DNA of 64,000 bases from positions 32,001 through 96,000 of IMG/VR virus record IMGVR_UViG_3300049491_000418; one strand, given 5' to 3'. Numbering within the stretch: position 1 is the first letter of the stretch; each line of letters begins with the position of its first letter. The stretch is from a virus. Of the stretch, positions 1 to 36,794 are shown piece after piece. A model generated the notes under the pieces. It was not told the DNA's origin and did no database searches. It was given only the letters and a program-made list of their open reading frames with translations. Both the position numbers and the translations under genes were made by a program.

Positions 1-10
1 TTTAGGAAAC

Positions 11-23100: not shown

Positions 23101-25127
23101 ACATCAATGATCCTTACTTAGTATTTAAAAAACAACTTCAATTAGAAAGTGCCAGAAATACTATCATCTCTGGTTTAGATAGAGAAGGAAAAATTATTCC
23201 TGCTGTAGATAGTATTATGAAAACATCTTTTGTTGGTAAATTGAAAAGCCACATTGATAACTACAGAGATGCTTTTGCTGAGATGTTGCTTTCAGATAGA
23301 AATAGAGTTAGAGAAGTAATGGAAGATGTGTTACGTCCTTATAGTAAAATGAGTGATAGAGACTTTGTTAAGATTTCACAAAAAGCTGTTAATGATTTAT
23401 TTGACTGGGCTGTTCAAAATGATAGAAGTATCAATAACAAAGTTGTTAGTACCTTGTTAGGAACAGATACTGAGAAAAGTGCTGCTAAACAAATTATAGA
23501 ATACAGAGATAGTATATTGGGTAATCCTGCTAAAAACATTCCTGCTAAACCTGATCATCCTTTATTTGATAACATCATTTTGAACTCTGTTACTTTAGAG
23601 GCTGGAGAAAATAACAAAAAGGTAGACAATATCTATCTAGGAAAAATTAGTAAAACATATGATCAAAACTTAGTAATCTATGGTTTTAATGAATTAAGAA
23701 CACACTTGAAAAATGAAAGCAATCCTTTATATGGTAAAATAGTTAGACTAGCTGTCTTACAATCAGGGTTAACAAACTCTAAGATAGCTTTTACAGCTCT
23801 TCTTCCTTATAAAGATTTCAAGGAAGTATACAATGCTACCTTGTCTCAGTTAGAAGAAAAAGAAAATCTTTCTGATTTTAAAAATATAGATGTTTTTGAA
23901 AGAAACAATTGGAATAACAGAGATGCAATTCCTATGGTTAGAGGAGAGATGAGAGAGTCTAAAAATAGTGTTGACTTTGGTACATATGATTTAAATGCTG
24001 CTTTTGTTGGGAAACAGCTTAAGAGAGCTATCAATGCTTTTCAAGTACCTCATGTAGTAAATATTTCTGCTACTTCTCAAGAGGGACGTTCAGAATTTAT
24101 TGTTTATACTTGGGAAAGTTATCTTCCTAAACCTAAACGTATTAGAGCTAAAAAGACTGGGGATAAAAGTCATATCAATAAATACCTTATGAAAAAGGTT
24201 TACACAGTTAATGAAAAAGGAGAAAGAGTTCCTTATATTAATGTTTCTGAAGATAAAAATGTTCCTGGTAAATTTTATTATAAATTTGTATACAAAGCAA
24301 TTAATGCTTGGGGAGATAGTTTCAAAGCTCAAGAACTTTATGATGAGGTAGTTCCTTCTAAGTTAGATAATGACTTCAAAAAGATTGAGTTAAAAAATGA
24401 AGCTAATACTGGCAGAAGACTTGGTGCTCCTGAAGTTGAGGATAGTTTAATCGTAGACCTTATGGAAGGAAGAATAACAGCTGATCAGTTAAAAGCTATC
24501 AACCTTGCAAAAGATATAGATGCTTTAGGAATTTCACCAGATGTAAATGCTCCTATAGAGCCTCTAGCGGAGGAAGGTCCTAGATATTATGAAGGAGAAA
24601 TTACTCCTTCTGCTGATACAGTATTTGTATTTGGTAGTAATCCTGAAGGAAGACATGGTGATGGTGCTGCTGCTGAAGCTATGGCTAAGTTTGGTGCCAA
24701 GTACTATCAAGGTAGAGGTTTACAAGGAGGTGCTTATGCTCTTGTTACTAAAAACCTAAAATCAGGATTTAAAGAACCAAAAACTGGTATCACCTATGAT
24801 GTTGCTGGGGAAAGATCTGTTAGACCTGATCAAATTGTTAATAACATTATAGAAATGTATACTGTGGCTAGAGCTAATCCTACTAAGAAATTCAAAATAG
24901 GATTTAGAAATACTATAAGTAAATCTCGTAATGGATATACAGGTTATGAGATGATGGACATGTTCAAGAATGCTGGTGAGATACCTGCTAATGTTTACTT
25001 CAGTAAAGAATGGGTAGATACAGGTAAGATGGATGCTGATTATACATCATTGGCAGAATCAAAAATAATTAATCCTAATAATGCTCCTGGTATATTACCA
25101 GAGATAGACAGAACCACTGAATGTTAA
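11112..25127 (+). CDS. Giant virion-packaged DNA-dependent RNA polymerase (crAss-like vRNAP polyprotein)
   Basis: 4,671 aa. RIPTQ...GSDFDIDK catalytic loop (DFDID at 21864-21878) and ETDGGGYIT motif. Also a degenerate zincin (HEVFE...EELAEEF) and a C-terminal VFGSN..G.HG.GAA domain. Confidence 0.9.
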   Translation: MEEEIGLMNDLPTASNISVPSGDNPNISSAHELPVNLGGTASGLPVYVPNNPSTRGSGKPEFREQSLEEIMDGMDISDKSGALDYVSARDLPGSGRYDKGVYVGRDAEEMYAQQQSTAEKWGNGVAKMVGTAATTFVSGTVGTLNGIGAMFAENRLAAFYDNDTNRKMDEYNKKMEDYLPNYYTQAETSASWLSPKNVWTANFWSDKVIKNLGFSIGSMAGGAAWSKAFGFVGKINALVRAEKGLETLTAVEAAMVNANSVSKFGAVSKALNGLATKYVNPAGAYILANGERATIALMGTMGEASMEALQNMNDFRNKLIKEYKLQSGVEPSGEDLEEINNMADHVGNFTWGMNVALLSATNYIQLPKILNSSKTAERRAINELAKESVAEGATIAEKTAAKYGAKASNLERAFGKPGKLFGDYLVNPVSLLFAPSEAFEEGMQFAIQTGVEDYFNRAHQNEQDTNDFWNNTLDSMGNVFSYGVKQALTTKEGLEGILIGGISGGLQTSFSPFGENNIKERGFTGTGGQVGRNTAAAITEINNSKNLTQALKDARNFVSIGIGSQKNRQEAVANNDTFNEKNFEKDYALSYIMPRVKYGKIDAVLSELDLYRRQALSDAGFEDLKASEVVLENETKQQFIKRLDNIESTSRQVSKTYDIINDRYSNITDEKGRRLYDDKVVDELVYAAAKTVDADERLKDLSSEMSLAGLGIDRLRTAMQASPSWEDNNTKGVIKDAEVQKEINALFAEAKIKDPNNLQNYREKVFDFANLLVDRKRYIDDYNKRILTPEEFSAPDVDTTEYPPIGSPKEVMKVTTSTGDVNVNVGEEYIMGRVTLKSKKGHDVYEAPTITILGQNEDGTLKVKKEDGTIVSMDPEELESRSLTKAEDVRKNPKISFYIYNWNVVWKNRSVKGADGKAAVGRIVYDKKQDRLLFQYIGKGGVLMEQEVINTMFSYKTATKLGFKQPYITAQSVLTPAQEASMEKFIESKMSFSEKIKARNSIISNLYETSKARLEQVTKELTSAKEKVDKAASTIEEQVKKGIETKEGTWKVKAIKSITKMARDLGALDASLLQQIEDLENEKEELEATIPYFKDFLEDIMSTPESGKEMIEDIKKDINDLEDLIDTTKDAISKTKSAIKLVEDLLKNALGVFNDYVKRLKEENPNMPLFLDDFLAKLEKYLGEEGAKQFVADKLGFTEQVLELDSDISDFKDELKIPDLQKRASTLSTDLKELEKGLDDLIAAQMAKAKILDEFKEFADREKAVQAEEKRMHTNPTLVKDLIGTLNKTVQNFFGNKAYDPMSKKPDMAVVRSTRPISDGKPHQERANHFGARMDSFSKKKRDSIRGIIVTQKTQGGVIDGLVEHLLSQVPEEDKEKYPANEVIALVMVEVDKKGNQFLLDQDGKRLSKDADVINSAIYQVFPTKSLKGNYVDADGNRKFGSMFRDDTPQSTVDSLTKQYAAWVDDQLAADAMPAPYKVSASFGYPELQKVMGETKEEIDHNARTSAKAAGLVTDVMLEREPVIQVKTSDAPVTLGNVTFTSPKGRVFLTLPNGIAKLFNRKFTATEAETIYDVLLQVTKNVRDHGEVRPETERLFNWLRSTTYWGFSKDRQGNPKPAGYNNMWFQEVTDTNNEKRLKLYISGKTTDPTQAIDFTYSSLYNRKGDIMMLLQNMYNNTSNHLTNESNWQNPYSQIVGINEDGSPQTVDWPNYQSYLLSDKMPDGGVRKNEDIPLITKFRPLVDENDTNRKGIYFTLKSGPTSFTMPEKEEATPATSEEPSASTTPTDSAPTVTPTKEEGSISMTIDGYEFDGKTPNTMELNAGPITFTVDIEKQMADGAGVSITSPGETVEALIAAKGYAEDHAYNVINATVLARLKPSLEKGIAELKARQTGKVEQKEPSVEASAVITPTPKVGKLDLTGENWNPINTKYGPTRFKINADKFLAGDVSLSAINVEMDPDLVDAVIEAKQSQNYDEEAAHKFIQQNVLFLIKDELALYDIKKNSSTPLENPPVEDTTEEAPAEEETIEEIDEVREATDESVNAPTETEIADGNNTTIEEAAPKKRGGFGKVDPNRIPLRDRKEYRLQVLKEAKAFEGENWEKVEKWLAANFPGLPVYRVKNMIKASNGRQAWGALMDGSIYLTQNAEVGTVYHEVFEAVWKMFAGPKEKNAIIKEFRNRPGYYKDRFTGKLIKFSRATDAELKEELAEEFRDKVLYGKDPVRIKGRNLISRLFNELLDFIHKFFTGKEAVNNTKQLFDKIGNGYYKNIHNPYLTKLSFPQEGIIDIEDMDVGDNAELRINNIPAIQVHDIIQHMTYSLLAPLSESNDILFSLSDILSKGKTKIYAELQEEVLGAINEKGLVLVDKEASGQKLTDSEQRMFDNLETLYNNVETEWKNIVEEHVNYLKTYALEFDENDELNINEGEQSGKEDWQDARTIDSFRKSNSAIKLLLGTLPVKTMKNGYPETVYSSIGGYTLLPANAVHIDLMNRLHDSVDIDEMMERLQNIALNDPKYFQLFERLTGKQPSANQDVYSDISDSDFRLISSFWRVLKKQNADVITVFIQPGGEVIVSDSTLASATKEAKRDMMSKIIDTMKTEKTPYFSYNSKTGRYSATKVLKDVTFSSEMSSYTNFLKNLGIKIDPVKLSDTLDENQKKMFRKTVGFIKETIEVIGDKVKTTNPDTGEEMTIDTGIMSINTSTLNIDADMTRLGIIQAILENPVFESTYFNINGQRTQSYVGTNTVSSFYDVLSKVVDFSEDLQEPQNKGFRYLLTDKFAKNSQILKKLFVQNDDGSYGERKDGTEGIMKTVFIDGTIDEYSGKKKESSKLNYVQRFVQELNLNLEGIYLNLVPGDASIEHAVRLHSDDNPFVNKDSYENGRHLPIFRDYFIDEVELARDERLVANVSGRNSTDLRFFKSILEDKSKANKNALHDEIMYDEKNKDKTSEELYKSYESQINTAVNKFIVEQGKETQRLFNKFNIIQANPENGLEAPGLNFKQDELKPEFLAQKLEVMAVNYMIANIEFHKLIYSDPYQYSDELKRIKNFNSPRQALVFNSQTLGKFLQDFYNKGVNPKDKAAYTDFQRDHFRTVTIDDIFSTNKNKDYEDPFEETDGGGYITIQALRKFRLRLGDWTPANERQFQFDLDYERKVKAGASAEDLRKFLKRNPNIKNTYTPVKPIVSGNKENGRDFNDVVLHKFALVPLSYRVLHELQENSYAIKLLDKMVNDDIDYAVYASGSKVGTETVHELYNEDGTFNNTPFESQREKEGFLPNNVKRGVSNIPFSIVGLQTEVPSKDTPLVTQGSQITKLVTMDFMEAGMPVDFMPEAEFMDRFAVWTTTDEEGRMKSELYRMVQHNQNLLEAKIVEGYNSLLKKLGIVQGKEGDNLTFTITDRDKFIKTLKDEILKREVNYNITDSFDGFESGHVVLEATPAYQQIRNILYSIADKNVVRPKISGGMKVQIPSSLLLEQHRVNIGSFKNKAGEIKQIFESSELEFYTKSEDGKSVNVAEIMVGRWFKSDKTDEELIEYFNNDPEGKKQLEALAGIAFRIPTQKQNSIDVFKIKKFLPKDFGDSVVVPSALVKKVGSDFDIDKLSIYLKNLYPGKDKNLKTVPYLGTGDQALDKFRKLFDEGEFDEYVKTFKDFLDLDSAEDRLLESIFPEDYAEQRSIQKEDVVNKLYKESLENEYIRSLEGLVSHPSNYEALVKPNSAQDLKDITNDINERKGLEKTDYTNVGNMLNRGFMSKQRHEFVTGKQAIGIAAVAQTNHSQNQRSPLFLDFRKLKKEGMDELDRTLLGGNPKAKSYANNPRINFKHYNSILVDGIAFPTLSLIKAAGQATEYISDTIGMFIDGYVDVAKGGWIMEMGATPNTAGTWLYLIKIGVPIKDVAYFMNQPIIVDYLQRIENKGQTWLFSEGNILKTLELYESPEDTSKPEVRAVIDSITSIPNLSTLKSNIGKTIEDMTPQELYEQHFMLKEFVKYAKQASQLFEVTQGSNHDTANINDPYLVFKKQLQLESARNTIISGLDREGKIIPAVDSIMKTSFVGKLKSHIDNYRDAFAEMLLSDRNRVREVMEDVLRPYSKMSDRDFVKISQKAVNDLFDWAVQNDRSINNKVVSTLLGTDTEKSAAKQIIEYRDSILGNPAKNIPAKPDHPLFDNIILNSVTLEAGENNKKVDNIYLGKISKTYDQNLVIYGFNELRTHLKNESNPLYGKIVRLAVLQSGLTNSKIAFTALLPYKDFKEVYNATLSQLEEKENLSDFKNIDVFERNNWNNRDAIPMVRGEMRESKNSVDFGTYDLNAAFVGKQLKRAINAFQVPHVVNISATSQEGRSEFIVYTWESYLPKPKRIRAKKTGDKSHINKYLMKKVYTVNEKGERVPYINVSEDKNVPGKFYYKFVYKAINAWGDSFKAQELYDEVVPSKLDNDFKKIELKNEANTGRRLGAPEVEDSLIVDLMEGRITADQLKAINLAKDIDALGISPDVNAPIEPLAEEGPRYYEGEITPSADTVFVFGSNPEGRHGDGAAAEAMAKFGAKYYQGRGLQGGAYALVTKNLKSGFKEPKTGITYDVAGERSVRPDQIVNNIIEMYTVARANPTKKFKIGFRNTISKSRNGYTGYEMMDMFKNAGEIPANVYFSKEWVDTGKMDADYTSLAESKIINPNNAPGILPEIDRTTEC

Positions 25128-25131
25128 TACT

Positions 25132-28100
25132 ATGAGCTGTAAAATTCAAATAAAAGAGAATATTACTCAAGTTATTGAGAAGAAAACTAGTGGTGCTACT
25201 GAAAAACCATTAGAAGAAGCTCAGGCTATTGGGATAGAAGTAAACAGTCAATTTGGTGTTGATGTTGTTTCCTTCTCCCAAACTCCAGATTATCTTGTAA
25301 AGAGAACTATTTCTATTCCTGATAGTCTTGTAGATATCTATTATGATAATGAAGTAGCTTTAGAGGAATCAGAGAAGGCATCTATTGTTGAAACTCCCAG
25401 TATTGTACCCACTTCTAAGGCTACTAGTGAAACTCTTATTAAGGTAAAAGAGGTTATGCAACAAATGAAAGTAAGTTTTCAATTATTGCATGACTACGCA
25501 AAAGGTAACCCAGCAATAGAAACAAAAGATGTTAGTGGACTTGCTGATCTATCTGCAGGAGTAATAGCTGTAGCTCAAGGTTCAGAAAGTGCTACATTAA
25601 CAGAGGAAATGGTCCATATAGCTACTGCTATTTTGGAACAAACAGATCCTAAGTTAATAACATCACTTATATCTAAGATTGAGAGATTTAAAATTTACAA
25701 ACTTACTTATGATGCTTATAAAGGAAATAAGAATTACCAGTTATCAAATGGTAAACCAGACATACGTAAGATTAAAAAAGAAGCTGTTGATAAACTGATT
25801 GCTGAATATATTGTTAAACAATCTCAAGGTAACTCAGATTTTCCAGAACTTACTGAACAAAGAGAAAGAAACTTGGTTCAATCATGGTGGGATTCTATTC
25901 TTGAATATTTAAGAAGCTTGTATGGTAAATCTAAAGTGGATTTATTTGCACAAGCTGCAGATCATATCATGTCTGGTAATATAGGTACTATTGAAGATAT
26001 TAAAGCTCAAGGAGTTTACTATCAATTAGGAACTGATGCAGTTGGAGATAATCCTCTTGTTGATAAGTTTGTTAATATCATCAATGACATTGACAGTAGA
26101 ATGAAACTTGATCCTAATCCTTCAGATAGACATTATACATTAGATGGTGAAAGGGTAGCAACTAGTGTTACTGAGAAGATTGGTAAATCTAAAAATCTAC
26201 CTGATAGAACTCCTGAACAAAAGATTAGTGATGATCAAAAGAAAACATGGGGTTCTGAAGGACATATGTATATTGAAAAGTATATAAAAACCAATCTTAT
26301 AGATCAAGATGGATTTAAAAAACCATTTACAAATAGTCTTATAAATACTACTCTTGATAGTGAAGCTCAAGAAAAACTTAATAGGTTTGCTGAGAACTTG
26401 ATTAATTCCTATCCTAAAGGAACAAGATTTCTTATTGAAAAGAAAGCAGTTAATCAAAGAGAAAAAGGTATGCTTGGATCTACAATAGATTTCATAGCTG
26501 TATATCCTGCAAAAAAAGTAGATGGTTCTCCAGATGTGAATATAGATATACTTGACTGGAAGTTCACTGATATAGATAAATCTATAGAGGAAGATGTTCC
26601 ATATGTTAAACAAAAAGACTGGAAGCCTCAGATGGGTGAGTATACCAAGATGATGTATGAATACGGTTTCAAACCTGGTCAGATTAAAAAAGCCAGAATG
26701 ATTCCTTTCATTATGAATTATGACAATATTGTTAAAGGAGATAGAAAAAGTGGTTTAAGACCAACCTCTATTGAAATTGGAAAGGTTGACAGTCTTACTG
26801 AAACTAATTTATATTTACTTCCTGTTCCAATCAATTCTGAGAGCACAGGAAATGATGCCATTGATGATTTGTTGAAATCTCTTAGAGGATACTGGGAGAA
26901 AATGTATTCAAAACAAGTTATTCCAGAAGCCAGAGCAACAAAACTGATTCATTTGAATCAATTAAGTAAAGCTATCCGTATATTACATGTTACTTTGAAC
27001 TTTGCTCCTCTTGTAAGTGTTGGTAAAACCTTCATCTCAACCTCTAGGGCTTCTCTAGATTCATTTAAAGGTGTGGATTATACTAAGTTATCAAAAGAAC
27101 AAATTGAGGCCAAATTACAAGACTTAATTGAGTTTAAAAACACTGCATTGAACTTTGCATCATTAGATGAGGCATATATTTCTCATTATGGAGATGTTAA
27201 TCTTACTGATGAGGCAAATAAAATATTATTAGGTCTTAAAGCTGTTTCTGCAAATGCCAAATCTAAATTAAAGGAAATTCTAGAACTTCAAAAAGAATAT
27301 GTAGCACAAATTGCTGTTAGAGAAAATTTTGTTAATGAAAACAATAAAACTTCTTTATTTGATGCTGAGAAAGAGATTGGTGCACTTATCAAAAATTTTG
27401 TAGAAGGAAGTAGACTTCCCGCCAAGCTTATAAATTTTGCTTCTAATCTTATCATGAGAGTGAAAAGATCTGCTGAGAAAAGATTCATAGAGAAGTTTGA
27501 TGAATTTAAAAAAGTATTACTTCCTTTAGAAGAGGAAGCTTCTAGACAAGGTAAAAGAGCATTTGATATGATAGGAACTGTTGATAAAACAGGACTACAT
27601 CTTATAAAAAAAGTTGATAAAAAGTTCTGGACCGATGTAAAGGATGCTAAAGAGAAAGGTAAGGAGAACAAAAAATTTCTTATGGATAATATGGATATGG
27701 AAAAATTCAATTCCTTGGCTAAAGAAGCTATAAATAAAGGAGTTGAAGAGCTTAAACTTATAGAGTTCTCTATGGACAAAGAAAAAGATGATTATATTAG
27801 AAGTGGTAAGATCAAACGTCTAAGAAAATCAGTAGATATTAATAGAGAAGACTTTAATGGTTATAATGAATACCTATTCAACCATATTTTTAGACAAGTT
27901 GTTAAGGCAGATGATCATTTATCTGAGGAATACAAGCAAATGAGTAAAAGTAAAGCATCCTTAGATGCTTGGAACTTCTTTACAGCAATGAATGAGAAAG
28001 CTAGAGACATAGGATACATTGATAAACAAGGTATGTCCTTCTTTCCATTGATTGAAGCTAGTATTGTTGATAAATTTAGACAAACAAGTAATGCTGGAGT

Positions 28101-30027
28101 TGAGTTAAAGAACTTCTTTAAAGATTTATATACTGTTAGAGAGTCTGAAGAGCAAATTTTCTCTAAAAAAGATTCAGAAACAGGAGAAATTAAGAAATCT
28201 ATACCAAAACACTTCACAAAACAAGGAAATCTTGCTACAGAAAGACTTTCTACTGATTTAAACAAGGTAGGGGCACTCTGGATCAAAGCTTTAATGGATT
28301 ATGAAGCCAAACAATCAATTGAGAATACCCTATTAACTATTCAGGCTGTTGAAAGAGCTAAAGGAAGTCTTGTTGTTAATGAACAAGGTGATTTAGTTAG
28401 TGAAGGGGGTAAGTTTGTTGTTAATAAATCTGTAAATAAGAATGCAGATATAATGGAAGCCATCTTAAATGATGCTATATATGATTTGCAGGAAGACTTA
28501 GGGAATATTGGTAACATTACTATCCAAAAAACAGCAAACAAACTTGGTAAAACAGCTGAAGGTAAAGAAAACCTAAATGTATCTATTAAAAAAGGACTTA
28601 AGAATGCTGATACTCTTACTAGAGCTCTTGCTGTTGGTCTAAAACCATTAATTGGTTTGGCTAACTGGATGGGTTATAATTTACATGCTGTTATTACAGG
28701 AGGTAATATGTATACTGTTGCAGAATTTATGAAAAACAATGCAAGAGTAACTGTATTTGGAGGACTCTCATTAGAACATAAAGCTCTATTACACTTAGTA
28801 ACTACTGCTCCTGATGATGAGATGACAGAGATGAGAAGAAAAGCAGCCAGAGAAAAAAGTCTAATATCTTATCTTTCCACATGGTCATTCAGTGATGTTA
28901 TGATGCTCACTAACTCTTTCCCTGAAAGAAAATTAGCTTTAGCTAGCGCTAAAAGCTTTAATGACAATGCTATAATAATTGATGGTAAGATTGTAAATGC
29001 CAGACAATATCTTAGAAAACAAGATAGATCTCAAAAATATAAGTTATCTCCTTCTGAAAGAAAGGTTCTTGAAAGATCCTTTGATGATAGAGTTAAATCT
29101 TTATTAGAATCTTCAACCAAGTTAACTTCAGCTGTTAAAGTAACAGATGAAAAGATTACAATTGAAGGAGTATTAGAAGATGAGATTGTAAAATATAGTT
29201 TGAAAGTATCTGAATTTTCCAGAAACATGAATGGCTCTATGAACATAGATAACAAAGCTGGTTATAGAAGAGATACCATGTTCAGTTCATTTATGATGTT
29301 TAAGAACTGGATCCCTAAATTATTAATTTCTAGAACAGGAGAGATAAAATATAACCTTGAAACAGAAGATTGGGAGTATGGTAGAATGAGAGCATTTGCT
29401 AAGGTATTTGCTGATAGTGGCTTTAGTGTTATTAAGAATATGAGAGCAATTATAACAGGTTCTCCTGAAGGACTAGCTATCCTTGATAGACTTCTACAGG
29501 AAAAGAAAGATGCATACTTTGAAAAAACTGGTCAAGAGTTAGAAATAACTGAAGAGGAGTTTTATGATTTAATGAGAAGAGAACTTGTTAATGAAGCCAA
29601 AGAACTTGGTATGTTATTTACCACATTTGCTATGGCAGCTATGATAGGTTTTATAAAACCACCTGAAGATGCTACAAATGATGAAAAAAATAAATGGAAG
29701 TTATGGGCTAAAGCATCTAATAAGATAGCGGAAGAACTTAGTTTTTATTATAGTCCTTTATCTATGGAAAGTATTACTAAAGGAAGTATATTACCTTCTT
29801 TAGGTTTATTAACAAAAGCATGGAGATTTTTTACAGCATTTAGTAAAGAATCTTATGGATATACAACAGGAGATGAAGAACTAATGGATAAAACATATCC
29901 TATTAAGTATTTCTTTAATTTAATACCTGGATTGGCTCAATTTCAAAATGATTATCTTCCATACATTGATGCAGAACTTGCTAAAGAGATGGGTATAAGA
30001 GTTACAGTAGAAGCCAGAAGACAATAA
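25132..30027 (+). CDS. Large virion-associated protein with a degenerate zincin motif and a PD-(D/E)xK nuclease-like domain
   Basis: EEMVH at 25603-25617. HYTLDG..SVT, GSEGH, STIDF...ILDWK and QMGEY motifs. Follows the vRNAP, as large crAss cargo genes do. Confidence 0.6.
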   Translation: MSCKIQIKENITQVIEKKTSGATEKPLEEAQAIGIEVNSQFGVDVVSFSQTPDYLVKRTISIPDSLVDIYYDNEVALEESEKASIVETPSIVPTSKATSETLIKVKEVMQQMKVSFQLLHDYAKGNPAIETKDVSGLADLSAGVIAVAQGSESATLTEEMVHIATAILEQTDPKLITSLISKIERFKIYKLTYDAYKGNKNYQLSNGKPDIRKIKKEAVDKLIAEYIVKQSQGNSDFPELTEQRERNLVQSWWDSILEYLRSLYGKSKVDLFAQAADHIMSGNIGTIEDIKAQGVYYQLGTDAVGDNPLVDKFVNIINDIDSRMKLDPNPSDRHYTLDGERVATSVTEKIGKSKNLPDRTPEQKISDDQKKTWGSEGHMYIEKYIKTNLIDQDGFKKPFTNSLINTTLDSEAQEKLNRFAENLINSYPKGTRFLIEKKAVNQREKGMLGSTIDFIAVYPAKKVDGSPDVNIDILDWKFTDIDKSIEEDVPYVKQKDWKPQMGEYTKMMYEYGFKPGQIKKARMIPFIMNYDNIVKGDRKSGLRPTSIEIGKVDSLTETNLYLLPVPINSESTGNDAIDDLLKSLRGYWEKMYSKQVIPEARATKLIHLNQLSKAIRILHVTLNFAPLVSVGKTFISTSRASLDSFKGVDYTKLSKEQIEAKLQDLIEFKNTALNFASLDEAYISHYGDVNLTDEANKILLGLKAVSANAKSKLKEILELQKEYVAQIAVRENFVNENNKTSLFDAEKEIGALIKNFVEGSRLPAKLINFASNLIMRVKRSAEKRFIEKFDEFKKVLLPLEEEASRQGKRAFDMIGTVDKTGLHLIKKVDKKFWTDVKDAKEKGKENKKFLMDNMDMEKFNSLAKEAINKGVEELKLIEFSMDKEKDDYIRSGKIKRLRKSVDINREDFNGYNEYLFNHIFRQVVKADDHLSEEYKQMSKSKASLDAWNFFTAMNEKARDIGYIDKQGMSFFPLIEASIVDKFRQTSNAGVELKNFFKDLYTVRESEEQIFSKKDSETGEIKKSIPKHFTKQGNLATERLSTDLNKVGALWIKALMDYEAKQSIENTLLTIQAVERAKGSLVVNEQGDLVSEGGKFVVNKSVNKNADIMEAILNDAIYDLQEDLGNIGNITIQKTANKLGKTAEGKENLNVSIKKGLKNADTLTRALAVGLKPLIGLANWMGYNLHAVITGGNMYTVAEFMKNNARVTVFGGLSLEHKALLHLVTTAPDDEMTEMRRKAAREKSLISYLSTWSFSDVMMLTNSFPERKLALASAKSFNDNAIIIDGKIVNARQYLRKQDRSQKYKLSPSERKVLERSFDDRVKSLLESSTKLTSAVKVTDEKITIEGVLEDEIVKYSLKVSEFSRNMNGSMNIDNKAGYRRDTMFSSFMMFKNWIPKLLISRTGEIKYNLETEDWEYGRMRAFAKVFADSGFSVIKNMRAIITGSPEGLAILDRLLQEKKDAYFEKTGQELEITEEEFYDLMRRELVNEAKELGMLFTTFAMAAMIGFIKPPEDATNDEKNKWKLWAKASNKIAEELSFYYSPLSMESITKGSILPSLGLLTKAWRFFTAFSKESYGYTTGDEELMDKTYPIKYFFNLIPGLAQFQNDYLPYIDAELAKEMGIRVTVEARRQ

Positions 30028-30063: not shown

Positions 30064-30693
30064 ATGGGAACACCAAGCAAACAAATTGGATGGAGTCAGG
30101 AATCAAACCTACTTCATGCAATATTAAGACAACTTGATCAACTTGCTGGCGTAATAGCTGTCAGTGGAGGAGGTGGACTAGATAACTTTGTTACTCTAAA
30201 TACAGTCCAACCTATTGTTGCAAGGAAAGATTTCTCTGTAGTTGCAGGACCTGCATCTACTTTTACATCTTCTACTGGAAATACAGTGAATGTTACTGCC
30301 ACTACTGGTAGTGGTGTATATAGTACATCTGTTGATGGCCCAGCTATAGAAGGATTTTCAGTTAATGATCCAGGTATTTTTGGGTATTCCAGTAATAGTG
30401 CTGGTGTATTTGCTCACTCACAGAACTTTGTTGCTCTTATTGTAGACTCTTTAAATCCAGGGAACCTTAGTGATTTAGCTAATTTTAATCTTAATGGAGT
30501 ACCTGCAGTTAGAATTACTAATAATGGTAAATTAAGTCTAAAAGCTTCTACAACATTAGCTGCAGTATTAAATTTACCTGTAGGAGTTGCTCCTACTGCT
30601 CCTGCTGATGGAGACATTTGGTTAGAGAGCACTGCTTTAACAGGGTTAAAAATAAGATTAGGTGGAGTAACTAGAACTTTAACTATAACATAA
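30064..30693 (+). CDS. Fibre-like structural protein
   Basis: N-terminal KQIGWSQE.NLL helix, about 11-aa G[VI]xxxS repeats, and C-terminal APTAPADGDIW. Confidence 0.5.
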   Translation: MGTPSKQIGWSQESNLLHAILRQLDQLAGVIAVSGGGGLDNFVTLNTVQPIVARKDFSVVAGPASTFTSSTGNTVNVTATTGSGVYSTSVDGPAIEGFSVNDPGIFGYSSNSAGVFAHSQNFVALIVDSLNPGNLSDLANFNLNGVPAVRITNNGKLSLKASTTLAAVLNLPVGVAPTAPADGDIWLESTALTGLKIRLGGVTRTLTIT

Positions 30694-30830
30694 TGTCATA
30701 TATCCCACGCCAGATAGGATGGTCTCAGGAGGCAATCCTATTGCAGAAAATATTGAAGAAGTTGATAGGTATTACTAAACTTGCAGCAGCTGCAAGCCCA
30801 GCAACTACAACTACTACAACTACACTATAA
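30693..30830 (+). CDS. 45-aa small protein not in the ORF track: MSYIPRQIGWSQEAILLQKILKKLIGITKLAAAASPATTTTTTTL
   Basis: Translated by hand. TAATG overlap with the upstream stop; shares QIGWSQE..LL..IL..L with the upstream gene; poly-Thr tail. Confidence 0.8.
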   Translation: MSYIPRQIGWSQEAILLQKILKKLIGITKLAAAASPATTTTTTTL

Positions 30831-30851
30831 TAAACCAATAAATAACTAAAT

Positions 30852-31919
30852 ATGAGAGAGCTAGCCTTCATTACGGCATGCCCAGATGATACTTACTTTA
30901 CATGGCAAGTACATTTGTGGCTTGAAAGTTTAAGAGAGATTGGGAAATCAGATAAAGCAGTAGTGCTTGTTTTTACTCCAGTCTTTAGGGATCAAAACCC
31001 TAAGTGGGAACAAATTGTGGACTTATATCCAGAAGCTGTTTTTAATTTTTACAAAGATGAAGATAACATCTCTTCTTTATTAGGAATTTATATTCCAGTG
31101 TTAAGACCTTATCTTATGTGGAGATTTCTTAAGGAAAATCCTGTATACACAAGTAAGGCATTGTTTTATTGTGATAGTGATATTCTCTTTACAGAGAAGT
31201 TCAATGTTGATGATTTCTTAGAAGATGATATTAATTACCTATCAGATACTAATAGCTATATAAATGCTGATTACTTTGATAGTAAAGTAAAAGATGTTCT
31301 TCCTGAGAAATTAGAAGAATACAAAACAAGAGATATCCTTGGTGAAGTAACCAGTTTAATTGGTATCACAAGGGAAATCTGTGAAGCAAATAATAAGAAC
31401 TCTGGAGGGGCTCAATATTTGCTAAAGAACATGGATAGTTCTTTCTGGTCTAAGGTTATGAATGACTGTATAATCATTAGAACCTATTTACTAAAAATAA
31501 ATAGAGAATTCTTTAAAGATGAGAATGCAGGATTTCAAAGTTGGTGTGCTGACATGTTTGCTGTTCTTTGGAACATTTGGTTAAGAAAACAGGAAACAAA
31601 AGTTATACCTGAATTAAATTTTGCTTGGTCTACTGATCCTATAGAAAAACTTCAAGAGACTACCATCTTGCATAATGCAGGAATTGTAGGAGAGTTTCAA
31701 ACTACTGGAACAAGTCACAAAATGACTAAGTCTGGAATGCTTACAGTACATGAGGGTTATAATGCCTTTTACAAGGGTAAGTATCATCAAGGATCAGATC
31801 CTATGATGGATCCACACTTAGACAAAGTATTAAATGATACTAACTCTCAGAAACATTGCACTTGGTTTTATGCCAAGAAATTAAAAGAATTAAGTAACAA
31901 ATTTCAATTACAGTACTGA
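30852..31919 (+). CDS. GT-A fold glycosyltransferase, similar in motif to peptidyl-serine alpha-galactosyltransferase / Hyp O-arabinosyltransferase (GT96/GT95)
   Basis: YFTWQ, YIPVLRP, DSD (DxD), GGAQY, WCADMF and ILH motifs. Confidence 0.7.
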   Translation: MRELAFITACPDDTYFTWQVHLWLESLREIGKSDKAVVLVFTPVFRDQNPKWEQIVDLYPEAVFNFYKDEDNISSLLGIYIPVLRPYLMWRFLKENPVYTSKALFYCDSDILFTEKFNVDDFLEDDINYLSDTNSYINADYFDSKVKDVLPEKLEEYKTRDILGEVTSLIGITREICEANNKNSGGAQYLLKNMDSSFWSKVMNDCIIIRTYLLKINREFFKDENAGFQSWCADMFAVLWNIWLRKQETKVIPELNFAWSTDPIEKLQETTILHNAGIVGEFQTTGTSHKMTKSGMLTVHEGYNAFYKGKYHQGSDPMMDPHLDKVLNDTNSQKHCTWFYAKKLKELSNKFQLQY

Positions 31920-32632
31920 TGAAAGATTATAATGGACTCATAAATCTAAACTATCCTGTTAAACCTTATTGTCTCTATATGATACATAATGATGATGACA
32001 GGAATGATAAAAATATTTATATAGGAGTTACTACTGATCAAATTCAGAGATGTTATAGACATTCTAAAAATAGAATGTATAAAAGGTATCAGAGCTCTTC
32101 TCTCTATATGTGGATGAATGATATTATAGATAATAAAAAACAAAAAGTTTCCTTCTTTGTGATGTTAGATAACTTAAGTGAGGAAGAGGCTTTTGAAAAA
32201 GAAAAAGAGTTTATTTCTGATTATCAAAGAATAGGATATACCATTTTAAATGATACTTTAGGAGGTAAAGGTCCTTCAGGTATTACTCCTTGGAATAAAG
32301 GCAAAAAGGATCATCTTTCAGAAGATCAAATCTTATCATTATCTTTATCTCATAAAGGTCAAGTTTCTCCTAGAAAAGGAGTTACTGTAACTGAAGAAAC
32401 TAGACAAAGGATTATTCTTGGTAACAAGAGAAGAAAAGAAAGAAATTGGATTAATCCAAGAAAAAAGACAGTATATAAGTACTCTAATGACAGAATTCTT
32501 TTGGCAACGTATTATTCTTTAGAAGAAGCAGGTCAAAAGGAAAATGTGTCTCCTACAAGTATAGGAGAGTGGTGCAGAAAAGATAAGAAACCTAGAAATG
32601 GGTTTGTATATTCTTATACTGAATTAACTTAG
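31919..32632 (+). mobile_element. Free-standing GIY-YIG-family homing endonuclease with NUMOD-like C-terminal repeats
   Basis: CLY...IYIGVT..R..H, E..E, LN...GG motifs; PWNKGK and SPRKG repeats; C-terminal VYKY...YYSLEEA...CR helix-turn-helix. Confidence 0.75.
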
Positions 32633-32658
32633 AATATTAACTATAAAACTTAAACAAA

Positions 32659-33258
32659 ATGGCAACAAGTAAAAAAGACCTCAAGGCATTTGTAAGAATT
32701 GATGGACAAGGTCGTGTGGTAGCAGGGAGCTTAATCTTGAGAAAAGATAAGCCCAAAGTAGGTAAGTGGAGAGAAATTCCAGCATATGAGTGCTGTAATC
32801 CAATAACCACAACCACAACCACAACACCTTCTCCTCCTCCTCCTCTTACAACAACAACCACCACAGAATTACTTAATGATCCTGGTGAAACAACTACTAG
32901 TACTACTACTGAGGAACCAACCACAACTAGTACTACTACTACTGAAGAGTTGACAACAACATCAACTACTACAGAGGAGCTAACTACTACAAGTACTACA
33001 ACTGTATTTGTTGATCCAAATGCTTTTACAACAACTACTACAACTTCATTGATTCCTGATCCAAATGACATCACTACAACTACCAGTACTACTACTGAGA
33101 ATGATGATGATGATGATGACGACGATGATGATGACCAAGGTGATGATGATAACAATGGTCATGGTCATGGTCATGTCCACATTGATGTAGATGTTGATAA
33201 TGATGGTGATGGTGATGTTGATATTGACATTAATGTTGATAATGATGATGATAATTAA
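32659..33258 (+). CDS. Mucin-like Thr-rich protein with a basic N-terminal domain and an Asp/His-rich tail
   Basis: About 45-aa globular N-terminus ending YECC, repeated TTTSTTTEE units, poly-Asp, HGHGHVH and DVDNDGDGDVD. Confidence 0.75.
   Translation: MATSKKDLKAFVRIDGQGRVVAGSLILRKDKPKVGKWREIPAYECCNPITTTTTTTPSPPPPLTTTTTTELLNDPGETTTSTTTEEPTTTSTTTTEELTTTSTTTEELTTTSTTTVFVDPNAFTTTTTTSLIPDPNDITTTTSTTTENDDDDDDDDDDDQGDDDNNGHGHGHVHIDVDVDNDGDGDVDIDINVDNDDDN
32805..33255 (+). repeat. Low-complexity (ACN)n and (GAT)n coding repeats
   Basis: Tandem ACA/ACT/ACC codons at 32805-33096 and a GAT/GAC run at about 33103-33135. Confidence 0.85.
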
Positions 33259-33271
33259 TAACTTCTAAACT

Positions 33272-33670
33272 ATGGCAATTTTTCCAAAAGAAATGATGGC
33301 TAATGCAGATATGTCCTTGGAAGGTGTAGCGTCAAAGCTTACATACTTCCAAGTGCAACTGCACTTGCAACATTGGCAAACTGTGAGTTATGCTGAGCAT
33401 AAAGCCATAGATTCACTATATGATTTTGTGGTAGGATTTACTGATGATGTTGTAGAGAGACTTATGGGTTATAATAACAGAAGAGTTAAAACATTTACCT
33501 TACAACCTCTTTCTGCAGAGCCTAGTACTACAACTGTTAATGATATACTTACTTTTGCCTATAATCTTCAAGAGTGGGCAGGTGAAAATCATTATTGTGA
33601 TATTGAAAATCTAGCTCAATCTCTATCAGGAGAGGCAGCTAAAACTAAGTATTTACTAACATTGAAATAA
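33272..33670 (+). CDS. Ferritin/Dps-like protein (DUF5856-like)
   Basis: QLHLQHWQT.SYAEHKA.D.LYD...D..VE and C-terminal KYLLTL. Confidence 0.7.
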   Translation: MAIFPKEMMANADMSLEGVASKLTYFQVQLHLQHWQTVSYAEHKAIDSLYDFVVGFTDDVVERLMGYNNRRVKTFTLQPLSAEPSTTTVNDILTFAYNLQEWAGENHYCDIENLAQSLSGEAAKTKYLLTLK

Positions 33671-33954
33671 TGGATGTTAATAAGAAATTCTTTCCTTCTA
33701 TAATGCCTGAAAATGAAGCAGTTTATTTTGCATCATTATATGGTGTTATTGAATCTGTAGATGAATTATCTTCATTAGAAATAACCAAAACTCCTAAGGC
33801 TTATCTGTTTAGATTAATACCTTCTTTACCAAAATACACTAACTTGATTATTGAGGAGCTTATTAAGTTCCATAATTTAATAGGAATTAGATTGGACATG
33901 GGAAAAAGTATAAAATCAACAGCAGTTATAACCTATTCTATTAGTTTCAATTAA
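33670..33954 (+). CDS. Hypothetical protein
   Basis: 94-aa ORF with TAATG coupling. Confidence 0.7.
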   Translation: MDVNKKFFPSIMPENEAVYFASLYGVIESVDELSSLEITKTPKAYLFRLIPSLPKYTNLIIEELIKFHNLIGIRLDMGKSIKSTAVITYSISFN

Positions 33955-33964
33955 AAAATTTTTA

Positions 33965-33972
33965 TAACTTTG
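33965..33972 (+). promoter_or_regulatory. Bacteroidota-type -7 element TAACTTTG
   Basis: Intergenic; TAACTTTGTTA is identical to the 8365 site. Confidence 0.5.
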
Positions 33973-34000
33973 TTACTTAAACCATTAAAAAAACTAAATT

Positions 34001-34294
34001 ATGGCAACTTATGATCCAAACAAAGCCTATACATGGGAACCTAATACTAAATTTGTCTTATCTGGACAAGATTTTAGTTTATTGTTACACTCAGTAAGAG
34101 GGATTTTATCAACTAAAGAGGCAACAAATGTCATTTTAGCTTATGAAATGAACAAAAAAATTGAAGAGATCATGGCTAGTGCTGTGGCAGAAGGTAAAGT
34201 AGTTGAATCTGAAGCTCCAGGACAAGTAGTTAATGATACTGAAGTTCATGATGCGGAAGTGTTGCCAGCTAATAAAAAGCTTAAAAAAGCCTAA
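34001..34294 (+). CDS. Hypothetical protein
   Basis: 97-aa ORF with an A-rich leader. Confidence 0.7.
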   Translation: MATYDPNKAYTWEPNTKFVLSGQDFSLLLHSVRGILSTKEATNVILAYEMNKKIEEIMASAVAEGKVVESEAPGQVVNDTEVHDAEVLPANKKLKKA

Positions 34295-34295
34295 T

Positions 34296-34436
34296 ATGAA
34301 AAGTTCCAAACCTAAAAAAGCTCCCAAAGTGGCTCCTCCTTCAAGAGAGAAGCCTAACTATATGAGAGAGTCTGATACTGATTCTAAGAGAACTAATCCT
34401 CAAGCACCAATGACTAAAAAACGTTTGTCAAAATAA
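34296..34436 (+). CDS. 46-aa basic protein (MKSSKPKKAPK...KKRLSK)
   Basis: ATG 1 nt after the upstream stop; Lys/Pro-rich. Confidence 0.6.
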   Translation: MKSSKPKKAPKVAPPSREKPNYMRESDTDSKRTNPQAPMTKKRLSK

Positions 34437-34463
34437 TTCTTCTGTTCTCGTGTTTGTTCAAAG

Positions 34464-34492
34464 AAAAAGCCTCTTTAATTAGAGGCTTTTTT
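34464..34492. terminator. Bidirectional intrinsic terminator at the convergence of the two modules
   Basis: AAAAAGCCTCT-TTAATT-AGAGGCTTTTTT perfect inverted repeat with U-tracts on both strands. Confidence 0.85.
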
Positions 34493-35125
34493 GATTATTG
34501 ATAGTGCTTCTTCATTACCACTCAGAGGTATCCAAGAGAATGATTCTACATCTTCATGAGCTTTTAGGAACTCTTCTATTTCTTCTCTGGCATAAACATT
34601 ATGAAATAGATTCTGATGTGGATCATAGTTGATTATTTCTCCATGGCCTGGTATAAGGAAGAACACATGAATGGCTTCTTTAGAGGCTAGTCTTATCATT
34701 TCCTTCAGAACTGGTTTAAAGGTAGGTTGATGTTCAAGGACGTGTCTTGAAAACACAACTTCTGCTTCATTATCTTCTAAAGGAACACTATGTGCTTCAG
34801 CTAATATCATTGGAACACCAATCCCTGTATTTCTCTTATAGAGGAACTGACTACTATCTACTCCTAGATATTTTAATTCTGGATATTCTATTTTGTAGGC
34901 ATTGTGTTCTGAAGCAGCACCACAGCCTAAATCAATCAAATACTTGTATCCTTTATTCATAATATAAAGTCTAAAGAATACTTTACTTAAGGCACTACTA
35001 GAGCCTACCCAGGAAGAGAATTCTTCAAATCTCAAAGCTAGATTTTCATCCCACCAAGTTTGTACAAATTCTTGTTCAGGTTTACTCTCCATCCATTCTT
35101 TCTCGAAATTTTCATTATCACTCAT
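34475..35125 (-). CDS. Class I SAM-dependent methyltransferase
   Basis: LIDLGCG motif I, YLGVDSS and FSRHVLEH. Confidence 0.85.
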   Translation of the reverse strand: MSDNENFEKEWMESKPEQEFVQTWWDENLALRFEEFSSWVGSSSALSKVFFRLYIMNKGYKYLIDLGCGAASEHNAYKIEYPELKYLGVDSSQFLYKRNTGIGVPMILAEAHSVPLEDNEAEVVFSRHVLEHQPTFKPVLKEMIRLASKEAIHVFFLIPGHGEIINYDPHQNLFHNVYAREEIEEFLKAHEDVESFSWIPLSGNEEALSIIKKASN

Positions 35126-35882
35126 ATACTATTTTTTTATGTACTAGATTAAATAATTTGTCTTTGTTCTCTAATAATTCCTTCTTAATGCTGGAAATAT
35201 CCACATCAGATATCCTTACAATCTCTTCAAAACCACCTTTATCAGAAATAAGAAATTCAAACTTCTCTGTAGGTACTGTATATGTTGGGGGATTATAATG
35301 AAAATAAGCATTAATATAGCTTTCATCATTAACTCCAGGCTCATATGAAATTTTCTTATCTTCTTTTTGATAAAAAACTAGTGTTTTACAGAACTCGAAA
35401 ATATTACTCTTACTTCCTCCAAAAAAAGCACCATAATAATACATTTGTGGTAATGGTGTATTTTCTGGAACATAAGCTTTAGATAAAGGATTTCTATCAA
35501 AAGACTTTCTTTCTTTCATCCAAGATTGATCCCCATAGTGTTGACCTCCTACTAATTCTCCTAAAAACCAATCTTCTGTAAATTCTTTATCTATATTAGT
35601 ATCTGAATCAAAGTAAAATTTGAAATCTTCGTCATTATAACTCTCCTCAAGACTAATAATATTGGTAAATTTTGAATTAGTAGCATCTACCCAATTACTA
35701 TGAGTAGTATAATGATAAATTACATTTATACTATCAGGAAGATAAGGTCTAGGATCTGTATCTGTAAACAGATGAAATACTATTTCAGCTTTTCCTTTAT
35801 AAAAGTGCATAAATCTCTTTATAAATCGTAGTGCAAGAGCAAAATATGCATTAGTTCCTACTATTATTATACCTATCTTCAT
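35118..35882 (-). CDS. Family 6 (ABO blood-group-like) glycosyltransferase
   Basis: MKIGIIIVGTNAY, FHLFTD, FYFDSD (DxD), FDRNPLSKAY, YYYGAFFGG and NDESYINAYF. Start placed at 35882. Confidence 0.85.
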   Translation of the reverse strand: MKIGIIIVGTNAYFALALRFIKRFMHFYKGKAEIVFHLFTDTDPRPYLPDSINVIYHYTTHSNWVDATNSKFTNIISLEESYNDEDFKFYFDSDTNIDKEFTEDWFLGELVGGQHYGDQSWMKERKSFDRNPLSKAYVPENTPLPQMYYYGAFFGGSKSNIFEFCKTLVFYQKEDKKISYEPGVNDESYINAYFHYNPPTYTVPTEKFEFLISDKGGFEEIVRISDVDISSIKKELLENKDKLFNLVHKKIVYE

Positions 35883-36459
35883 ATTGTAAATTTGTTTTGT
35901 TAATTCTTGATCCATTAAGCATATGTTTTAACATACTGTGACTTACAGTAAGGGTTTCTGCTGCTGCTCTAGCTGAAGGATAAACTTCTTTAGTAATTAT
36001 ATTGATAACTTTTTTGGCAGAAGCAGGAACTAATCCTTTTCTTAAATTTCTATTTCTTTCAGCAGCTTCAGGACTCCTAACTTTACCTGAATTAGCTTTA
36101 CCTATTTTAAGTTTATGTTCTAAAGATTTACTTTTTCTCATTTTTTCTATAGTTTCTGGACTATTTTTACCTCTTGAACCCCCTTCTCTAATATTAAGTA
36201 GATCAAATCCTTGTTCTTTAAAGAATTTCATATAATGAATTTCAAAATAATCCATACTTTCTTGAGTTGATTCTATAGTTAATTCATGTATTATCTCAAA
36301 AGTATGCTTCTCAATACCATACTTAATAAAAGAATTATGAAGTTTTCCTTGAGTTCTAGCTAAATCTCTGCTATAATTATAGAATCTTGTTTCTATTTCC
36401 CAACTCTGTCCAATATAAACTTTACCAGAGGGACTAGTTATTTTATAAATACCTATCAT
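35851..36459 (-). mobile_element. GIY-YIG homing endonuclease (NUMOD3-like)
   Basis: MIGIYKITSPSGKVYIGQS, LN..EGG, SPETIEKMR and YPSARAAA. Confidence 0.85.
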
Positions 36460-36469
36460 AATATTAAAT

Positions 36470-36492
36470 ATTAAAGCCCTCCTAAGAGGGCT
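36470..36492 (-). terminator. Putative intrinsic terminator/hairpin after groES
   Basis: AGCCCTC-TTAG-GAGGGCT followed by TTAATATTT on the minus strand. Confidence 0.5.
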
Positions 36493-36503
36493 GTTAATTT
36501 CCA

Positions 36504-36794
36504 TCACCAGATATGCGCTATGTCAAAAATACTCACCATTATTACTTCCTTCTCTTCTGATAGAATGATTTTGGCTGCTTTAGCTGCTGATGTAGGATCT
36601 ATCATAACTTCATCTCCCTCAGCGAGGTCTGTTATATCACTTCCTACAGCATAAACTCTTAATCTACCAAAACTTCTCATTTTTTCAGCATCAAGCATGG
36701 CTTGAGTTTCAGCATCTACATATGCTAAGCTACTTACTTTCTCTACAGGGAGTTCTAGATATATCCTTCTCCCTAATAATTTTCTAAATTCCAT
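36504..36794 (-). CDS. GroES/Cpn10-like co-chaperonin
   Basis: KLLGRRIYLE, VYAVG, GDEVMI and a C-terminal DIAHIW pattern; 96 aa. Confidence 0.7.
   Translation of the reverse strand: MEFRKLLGRRIYLELPVEKVSSLAYVDAETQAMLDAEKMRSFGRLRVYAVGSDITDLAEGDEVMIDPTSAAKAAKIILSEEKEVIMVSIFDIAHIW

Follow-up and report, generated by a model that had tools for sequence, protein, structure and literature searches.

Glycosylation of phage particles has been described in the mycobacteriophages Che8, Corndog, and Myrna, where, according to two sources, glycans are carried on the C-termini of capsid and tail-tube proteins and shielding from antibodies is the proposed role (PMC12619734, PMC13313380). A third source places phage glycosyltransferases and an O-methyltransferase among the structural genes of the Corndog cluster (PMC4351075). 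A literature search returned no experimental phage-particle glycosylation outside the mycobacteriophages. Here we describe a locus in a 106,775-bp virus record (IMG/VR record IMGVR_UViG_3300049491_000418), bases 32001–96000 of which make up the 64,000-nucleotide window that was analysed; coordinates below are window positions. The locus is centred on a 355-amino-acid (aa) glycosyltransferase, here called GT355 (30852–31919, + strand), and on neighbouring genes whose products carry runs of threonine (Thr). We consider it likely, with a probability of roughly 0.7, that this phage encodes the O-glycosylation of its own particle proteins on Thr tags. The reading draws on gene content, fold, catalytic motifs, synteny, co-occurrence together with joint loss, and fusion proteins, all of which are established. 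The genome has a GC content of about 32%, and its muzzle-protein homologue (PF25731) identifies the phage, at the sequence level, as crAss-like. All genes named in a first-pass annotation of the region were found where it had placed them.

Sequence family and modelled fold of GT355

GT355 belongs to an unannotated family. Its sole family match is phrog_4417 (function unknown, E 3e-53), and the family is large, with 735 cluster representatives (50% identity) at E ≤ 1e-3. GT355 matches no Pfam family at E ≤ 0.1 and no NCBIfam model, and sequence searches of the PDB with the protein and with its profile returned nothing meaningful. The fold was taken from an AlphaFold2 model computed with an alignment of 92 sequences (predicted local distance difference test score, pLDDT, 97.6); single-sequence AlphaFold2 reached only pLDDT 38. 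The model shows a GT-A fold with a DSD motif at residues 108–110, of which D108 and D110 are invariant in the 92-homologue alignment.

Comparison of the model with solved structures by VIA-align gave glycogenin (Z 14.7, root-mean-square deviation 3.6, 227 residues aligned), LgtC (Z 14.2), the Skp1 alpha-galactosyltransferase (alpha-GalT; Z 14.0), UGGT (Z 14.0), GlyE (Z 13.1), BoGT6a (Z 12.2), and the PBCV-1 capsid glycosyltransferase A64R (Z 11.5), and Foldseek agrees (glycogenin, E 3e-6). Several of the best matches, namely glycogenin, Skp1 alpha-GalT, UGGT, GlyE, and A64R, act on proteins or glycoproteins. Because the model is of the GT-A type and its best matches are retaining enzymes, GT355 is, on the strength of the model, a glycosyltransferase, probably with a retaining mechanism. 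It is GT8-like in its fold and DxD motif and stands outside GT8 by sequence: PF01501 misses GT355, and the Pfam GT8 models match none of the 92 homologues at E ≤ 0.01. A reading of the sequence and the model, with no formal prediction, revealed neither a membrane segment nor a signal typical of envelope enzymes in GT355.

The first-pass annotation had likened GT355 to GT95 and GT96 enzymes, an identity that these searches neither establish nor reject. Neither GT355 nor any of the 92 homologues matches PF23452 (HPAT) in Pfam, no GT95 or GT96 enzyme is among the fold matches listed for GT355, and the nearest solved folds are retaining enzymes of the GT8 and GT6 types. One weak lead is that PF23452 is carried by 10% of the members of one neighbouring viral Atlas cluster.

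Linkage between GT355 and threonine tracts

Across all six frames of the whole genome, runs of at least five Thr occur in five open reading frames (ORFs) only, all on the structural strand. These are the muzzle protein, two unannotated ORFs upstream of the window, and two small proteins, p45 and p199, encoded upstream and downstream of GT355, respectively. The tract codons are a mixture of ACA, ACT, and ACC, and the tracts are therefore not simple DNA repeats.

The same arrangement recurs in 80 related viral loci gathered via GT355, which are kin to one another and not independent samples. ORFs carrying runs of seven or eight Thr (T7 or T8, with other run lengths written likewise) directly flank GT355 on the same strand in 77 of them; the co-occurrence of the enzyme with tracts of at least six Thr, which the first-pass annotation had proposed as a check, thus holds within this clade. 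Runs of at least six Thr lie within 3.5 kb of the enzyme in 257 of 268 cases, although this span accounts for only 42% of the sequence. The most frequent tract length, by a sharp margin, is seven (175 of 262), and the commonest gap between tracts is three residues, with VAP, AAP, and IAP as the top spacers. The gene order GT355, family B (the family of p199), DUF5856, p94, p97 is kept in 64–74 of the 80 loci. Furthermore, among loci anchored on DUF5856 instead and having enough upstream sequence, the enzyme is present in all but one (L164), where the complete 10 kb upstream contains neither enzyme nor Thr tract; as this record covers only about 61% of its genome, the enzyme gene could be in another part.

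Of 50,697 cultured phage records searched by tblastn with GT355, 77 contain a homologue, most of them from phages of Bacillota. Thr tags lie beside the gene in all ten homologue-bearing cultured phages that were examined. They are on capsid and/or tail proteins in phiFL1A, bIL285, iLp84, 1706, and TPWB06, and on neighbouring, mostly unannotated proteins in phiCTP1, DH5, Semele, VFW, and MA9V-3.

The Lactobacillus phages provide a natural comparison. No GT355 homologue is present anywhere in the records of iLp1308 and CL1. The capsid protein of both phages, which shares 98% identity with its counterpart in the enzyme-bearing iLp84, ends ..VLIPKP, compared with ..VLVPTTTTTTTSK in iLp84; their tail protein likewise lacks the tag carried by the iLp84 protein, and no run of four or more Thr occurs in the 8-kb structural region examined. 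Enzymes of the phrog_4417 family are in this manner paired with Thr-run neighbours in structural modules, and the pair is gained and lost jointly. A C-terminal heptad tag on a capsid protein that comes and goes with the enzyme is, from these sequences, hard to explain as a linker.

The individual tagged proteins are as follows. In Enterococcus phage phiFL1A, the major tail protein is encoded directly upstream of the homologue and has the C-terminus ..NGTTTTTSTTTTTTSSTTTTTTTQASSK, and gp45, annotated as hypothetical and by position probably the capsid protein, has terminal T5, T5, and T7 runs. The tagged protein of Lactococcus phage bIL285 is orf50, which is unannotated and occupies the position of the major tail protein, and Lactobacillus phage iLp84 carries tags on its capsid, its tail protein, and a (T7 VKP)n protein. 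Tags are found on gp18, directly upstream, in Clostridium phage phiCTP1, on the major tail protein of Arcanobacterium phage TPWB06, on two upstream proteins in Chryseobacterium phage MA9V-3, and on neighbouring proteins in Staphylococcus phage DH5, Lactobacillus phage Semele, and Enterococcus phage VFW. Lactococcus phage 1706 has tags on its capsid, a major structural protein, and a putative holin. The latter (orf3, L085 964–1365) bears a near-C-terminal T7 in an enzyme-bearing phage, and tags may accordingly not be limited to particle proteins.

Candidate acceptors and the variable glycan genes

The first candidate acceptor is the muzzle-protein homologue, a tail protein. The ORF at 2–2251 (+ strand) encodes the C-terminal 749 aa of a 1876-aa protein, and the full ORF matches PF25731 (crAss_MUZ, E 2.4e-33) and phrog_37948 ('virion structural protein', E 3e-101); its first-pass label as a tail-stabilisation-like protein is thus in error. 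The three poly-Thr tracts ascribed to it at that stage were a miscount as well, as four lie in the window, T6 at 1235–1252, T5 at 1712–1726, T7 at 1736–1756, and T8 at 2222–2245, the last forming the extreme C-terminus. The whole protein has five.

Upstream of GT355 lie two members of a small-protein family, family A, which share a conserved N-terminal module of about 28 aa (MAIPSRQIGW..NLLWQISKQLE.L). The short member p45 (45 aa; 30693–30830, + strand) consists of this module and a terminal T7 (30804–30824), has the C-terminal sequence ATTTTTTTL, and is a candidate acceptor. Most related loci have a short form of this kind (45–57 aa, T7 at about position 38) immediately before GT355. The longer member, p209 (30064–30693, + strand), combines the module (..KQIGWSQESNLLHAILRQL..) with a GGGG stretch, which occupies the place of the Thr tract, and a fibre-like C-terminal domain. 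Its N-terminal motif is common to p45 and to 90 unique family-A ORFs from the related loci. No match to p209 was found in Pfam, PHROG, or NCBIfam, and its look-alike in the ESM Atlas, a phage hyaluronidase/Mtd_N tail fibre (score 0.90), serves as a lead only. Past the module, some family-A proteins have T7 tags and nothing more, others have T7 and then a variable domain that may reach 558 aa, and still others have a variable domain with no tract. Several paralogues occur upstream of the enzyme (L003–L082), with one N-terminus and many C-terminal domains; one of these domains has collagen-like GPPGPPGP, and others are repeat-rich and up to 558 aa long. By its sequences, family A looks like an exchangeable fibre cassette with a common attachment module.

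Downstream of GT355, p199 (199 aa; 32659–33258, + strand), also a candidate acceptor, consists of an N-terminal domain of about 50 aa (..LKAFVRIDGQGRVVAGSLILRKDKPKVGKWREIPAYECCNP), Thr units, and an acidic tail. Its Thr content comprises T7, T6, and T6 runs, two T4 runs, and five units of the TTTSTTT type. Family B as a whole has a conserved domain of about 50 aa that ends ..YECCNP and is followed by (T7 xxx)n. A family-B gene lies downstream of GT355 in 74 of the 80 related loci, and 82 of 97 unique members have a run of at least five Thr that starts near residue 50. Both families are predicted from sequence to be located in the virion. The tail of p199 (33085–33255) contains eleven Asp, then HGHGHGH, then alternating D-x-D repeats, a feature absent from the family-B sequences listed for related loci; a role in binding metal ions is conceivable.

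A third conserved small protein, of about 107 aa (MENFTIHIFGYGETQ..) and ending ..KDTTTTTTT plus 2–3 residues, is encoded about 8.7 kb upstream of the enzyme in L038, L047, L053, L072, and L075, and some of the rare tracts at a distance from the enzyme belong to proteins of this kind.

About 2.5 kb from GT355 lie the genes for a GT6-family glycosyltransferase and a methyltransferase, both on the − strand. The GT6 gene occupies 35118–35915, with a start perhaps at 35882, and its product is, judged by sequence, a sound member of the family. It matches PF03414 with E 1.4e-15 (57.4 bits against a cut-off of 25), aligns full-length with BoGT6a (E 3.8e-13) and the ABO transferases (about 1e-9), and scores 77 bits against NCBIfam NF041524, below the subfamily cut-off of 250. 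Its FYFDSD aligns with FFFNAN of BoGT6a at the DxD/NxN site, and its VNDESYINAYF with WHDESLINKYF at the catalytic-Glu motif, the same position being marked by the E192Q mutant chain 4cjb. Overlapping this gene by 8 nt is that of a class I S-adenosylmethionine (SAM)-dependent methyltransferase (34475–35125), which matches PF08241 (Methyltransf_11, E 4.8e-10) and yields weak, non-specific NCBIfam matches only; we propose, from its sequence and setting, that it is an accessory sugar O-methyltransferase. The initial assignments of both genes, including their overlap, are thus upheld, with the DxD motif and the catalytic Glu of the GT6 kept.

The part assigned to these two enzymes in the first-pass annotation is backed as a functional link and falls as a conserved partnership. 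The GT6 occurs in one and the methyltransferase in none of the 80 related loci, and the pair was rejected as core partners of GT355 on these counts. Other enzymes occupy the slot in relatives: a GT2 (41 loci), a second GT2 (15), other methyltransferases (13), a GT2/rhamnosyltransferase-like enzyme (4), a GT11 (4), and a GT32-like enzyme (2). A local tblastn search found none of these island enzymes, GT11 included, in the present genome. Functional linkage is backed by natural fusions. P0203 unites a domain of the GT355 family with a GT6 domain 46% identical to that of the window, P0143, P0176, and P0197 combine GT355-family and methyltransferase domains, and further GT355-family fusions involve GT2, O-fucosyltransferase (O-FucT), and N-acetylglucosamine (GlcNAc)-transferase domains. 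The fusions and the variable glycosyltransferase island point to a multi-step glycan with later steps that vary between strains.

Two homing endonucleases adjoin these genes. A GIY-YIG/NUMOD3 enzyme (31919–32632, + strand; PF01541, PF07460; phrog_314) begins at the GT355 stop codon, between GT355 and the family-B gene; it is found at this position in only 7 of the 80 related loci and is a mobile passenger outside the pathway. A second GIY-YIG endonuclease (35851–36507, − strand; phrog_314, E 2.5e-25) overlaps the longest reading of the GT6 ORF and is found in 6 of the 80. This overlap suggests that the GT6–methyltransferase pair is a mobile cassette.

The structural block on the + strand converges with the − strand block near 34.4 kb. 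A consensus scan alone marks a terminator-like, GC-containing 12-bp hairpin followed by a T run at this convergence (34463–34492, + strand), where it shares bases with the end of the methyltransferase gene. Two giant ORFs of 4671 aa (11112–25127) and 1631 aa (25132–30027) stand between the gene for the muzzle protein and those for glycosylation; their position, we presume, resembles that of the large cargo or RNA-polymerase proteins of crassviruses. On the − strand, a 773-aa protein (44561–46882) resembles, over its N-terminal half and at 25–35% identity, rIIA-type lysis-inhibition proteins of T4-like phages and actinophages. A megablast search of the region against cultured phages gave no match.

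Proposed pathway, alternatives, and comparison with known systems

In the proposed pathway, GT355 would act in the cytoplasm late in infection and use a nucleotide sugar to attach an initial sugar to Thr hydroxyls in short, exposed units, a typical unit being seven Thr and a three-residue spacer that often ends in proline. As GT355 is a metal-dependent DxD enzyme of the retaining GT-A type, the linkage would probably be alpha. The acceptors would be the muzzle protein, family A, family B, and two more structural-module proteins, with family A built as an N-terminal attachment module, a T7 stalk, and an optional distal domain. The GT6 would then extend the chain, and the translationally coupled SAM methyltransferase would modify it. 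Since the second step is carried out by other enzymes in relatives, strains probably carry different glycans. We infer the acceptor, the sequence of steps, the sugars, and the biological role, shielding and adhesion being among the roles that the first-pass annotation had put forward.

Several observations weigh against this reading. The nominal binomial p for the proximity of tracts to the enzyme (about 1e-80) is inflated by the kinship of the loci. The GT6 and the methyltransferase, besides their rarity in the related loci, are encoded on the other strand, where they close the non-structural transcription unit. The literature search returned no paper on the GT355 family or on Thr tags of phage proteins. 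The most direct counterevidence comes from the reverse association, for which viral contigs were scanned for T7-x3-T7 and the whole records were then searched with the GT355 profile. The enzyme is present in only 16 of 62 viral records (26%) with T7-x3-T7 or longer Thr runs and in none of the five whose completeness reaches 94%, and two complete enzyme-free phages have a Thr-tract protein beside a lysin amidase or an integrase. Thr tracts therefore exist without GT355, and the proposal of the first-pass annotation that a glycosyltransferase acts on virion Thr tracts, which the comparative evidence strongly backs, has to be set against the many enzyme-free phages with tracts.

Other results of the same scan qualify these counts. 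The rate of 26% is far above the base rate of about 0.15% in cultured phages, and it is 6 of 14 in records with a completeness of 60% or more. A control search with the reversed pattern gave 0 matches. Many of the enzyme-free tracts are long pure runs. An expected enrichment of the enzyme in 'quantised' T7-xxx-T7 loci (7 of 21) over long poly-Thr loci (9 of 41) was not significant (Fisher p 0.37) and was discarded. Three viral contigs (L183, L185, and L234) contain 36–60 uninterrupted Thr, with no GT355-family gene in the sequenced part that was searched.

Tracts in many enzyme-free viral records are what would be expected if the Thr runs were mere flexible or stiff linkers or tails and GT355 acted on another target, either phage DNA or a host envelope glycan (lipopolysaccharide, capsule, or teichoic acid) modified so as to exclude superinfecting phages or to mask receptors. 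Modification of DNA or of host O-antigen by phage glycosyltransferases is well known and has been reviewed (PMC12619734), and T7 stands at a linker-like place in the long family-A members. We nevertheless regard this explanation as unlikely, because a C-terminal heptad on capsid and tail-tube proteins joins nothing and because tag and enzyme appear and disappear jointly in proteins that are 98% identical. Moreover, the enzyme is encoded in the late structural module, directly after a tagged gene, in phages of three phyla, and GT355 itself, on reading its sequence and model, has no typical envelope-enzyme membrane segment or signal. DNA glycosylation in particular was rejected on position, strand, frame, and joint loss.

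A different alternative accepts that GT355 glycosylates families A and B and takes these proteins to be intracellular or released glycopeptides rather than virion components, such as decoys for host defences, factors that time lysis, or adhesives freed when the cell lyses. The short forms of 45–90 aa match no known structural family, and the tagged putative holin of phage 1706 would suit such a role. Against this stand the position of the genes at the end of the structural module and on the structural strand, the N-terminal module that short family-A proteins have in common with long fibre-like paralogues, and the presence of the same tags on the muzzle protein and on capsid and tail proteins of other phages; we judge it improbable. 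Lastly, a chance or compositional artefact, in which AC-rich low-complexity DNA happens to adjoin an unrelated gene, might be entertained for an AT-rich genome, given that low-complexity tracts are common in phage fibre genes, and is effectively refuted by the joint loss, the single frame and strand, the mixed codons, the length peak fixed at seven, the empty backwards control, and the recurrence of tracts beside the same enzyme family in unrelated phages.

Glycosylation of particle proteins on Thr tags remains our preferred reading, and a broader version of it may be offered tentatively, as something we find conceivable and do not yet lean towards. T7 with a proline-ending three-residue spacer might be a portable, gene-encoded O-glycosylation tag that one enzyme family recognises in the phages of three or more bacterial phyla. 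Short members of families A and B might then be 'glycan-only' fibres whose working end is a sugar brush, and the swappable GT2, GT6, GT11, GT32-like, and methyltransferase genes might generate strain-specific glycan 'serotypes' under diversifying pressure, as in bacterial O-antigens.

The analysis ties one unannotated enzyme family to a simple, recognisable candidate acceptor tag across crAss-like phages and phages of lactic acid bacteria, enterococci, staphylococci, clostridia, and one actinomycete. If the proposed glycosylation is real, many phage particles, including those of dairy and gut phages, would be sugar-coated, with consequences for antibody recognition, adhesion to mucus and surfaces, host-range assays, and the mass-spectrometric identification of structural proteins. 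GT355 and the T7 tag could also be developed into a small tool for glyco-tagging in the cytoplasm. Cultured phages whose sole difference is the cassette exist, with iLp84 or PLE3 on one side and iLp1308 or CL1 on the other.

Among known systems, the GT8-type enzymes glycogenin, Skp1 alpha-GalT, UGGT, and GlyE are matched by GT355 with Z scores of 13–14.7 over 214–244 residues and with the DxD motif, although GT355 lacks membership of that family at the sequence level. The substrate of GlyE, in the pathway of a pneumococcal serine-rich-repeat adhesin, is a densely O-glycosylated protein with Ser/Thr-rich repeats. GlyE extends GlcNAc laid down by the GT-B enzyme GtfA/B, whereas in most relatives of the present phage GT355 is the sole conserved candidate initiator. 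The known GT6 enzymes compared with the GT6 of the window are BoGT6a from Bacteroides ovatus, the human ABO transferases, and bovine alpha-1,3-GalT. The window enzyme keeps a DxD motif (DSD), in contrast to the NxN of BoGT6a, and the classical Fuc-alpha-1,2-Gal acceptor would be impossible here unless other enzymes supply it. GT95 (hydroxyproline O-arabinosyltransferase) and GT96 (peptidyl-Ser alpha-galactosyltransferase) are plant and algal enzymes that initiate O-glycans at the hydroxyl amino acids in repetitive, extended peptides. A64R of chlorovirus PBCV-1 resembles GT355 as a virus-encoded cytoplasmic GT-A enzyme that acts on its own capsid (fold Z 11.5); PBCV-1 is a eukaryotic virus with atypical N-linked glycans and, unlike the present phage, has no Thr tags.

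As in the mycobacteriophages, glycosyltransferases and a methyltransferase are associated with structural genes. The enzymes differ: the GT355 profile does not match Corndog gp35–38 at E ≤ 10, and no Mycobacterium phage is among the 77 tblastn matches of GT355. The acceptors differ as well, in that the capsid and tail C-termini of Corndog bear no Thr tag, whereas the present system would use a quantised acceptor of T7 plus three residues, in a phage whose hosts are probably Bacteroidota and with homologues in phages of Bacillota and Actinomycetota. By analogy, virion glycosylation in mycobacteriophages is the nearest known system, apparently alike in its logic and built from non-homologous enzymes.

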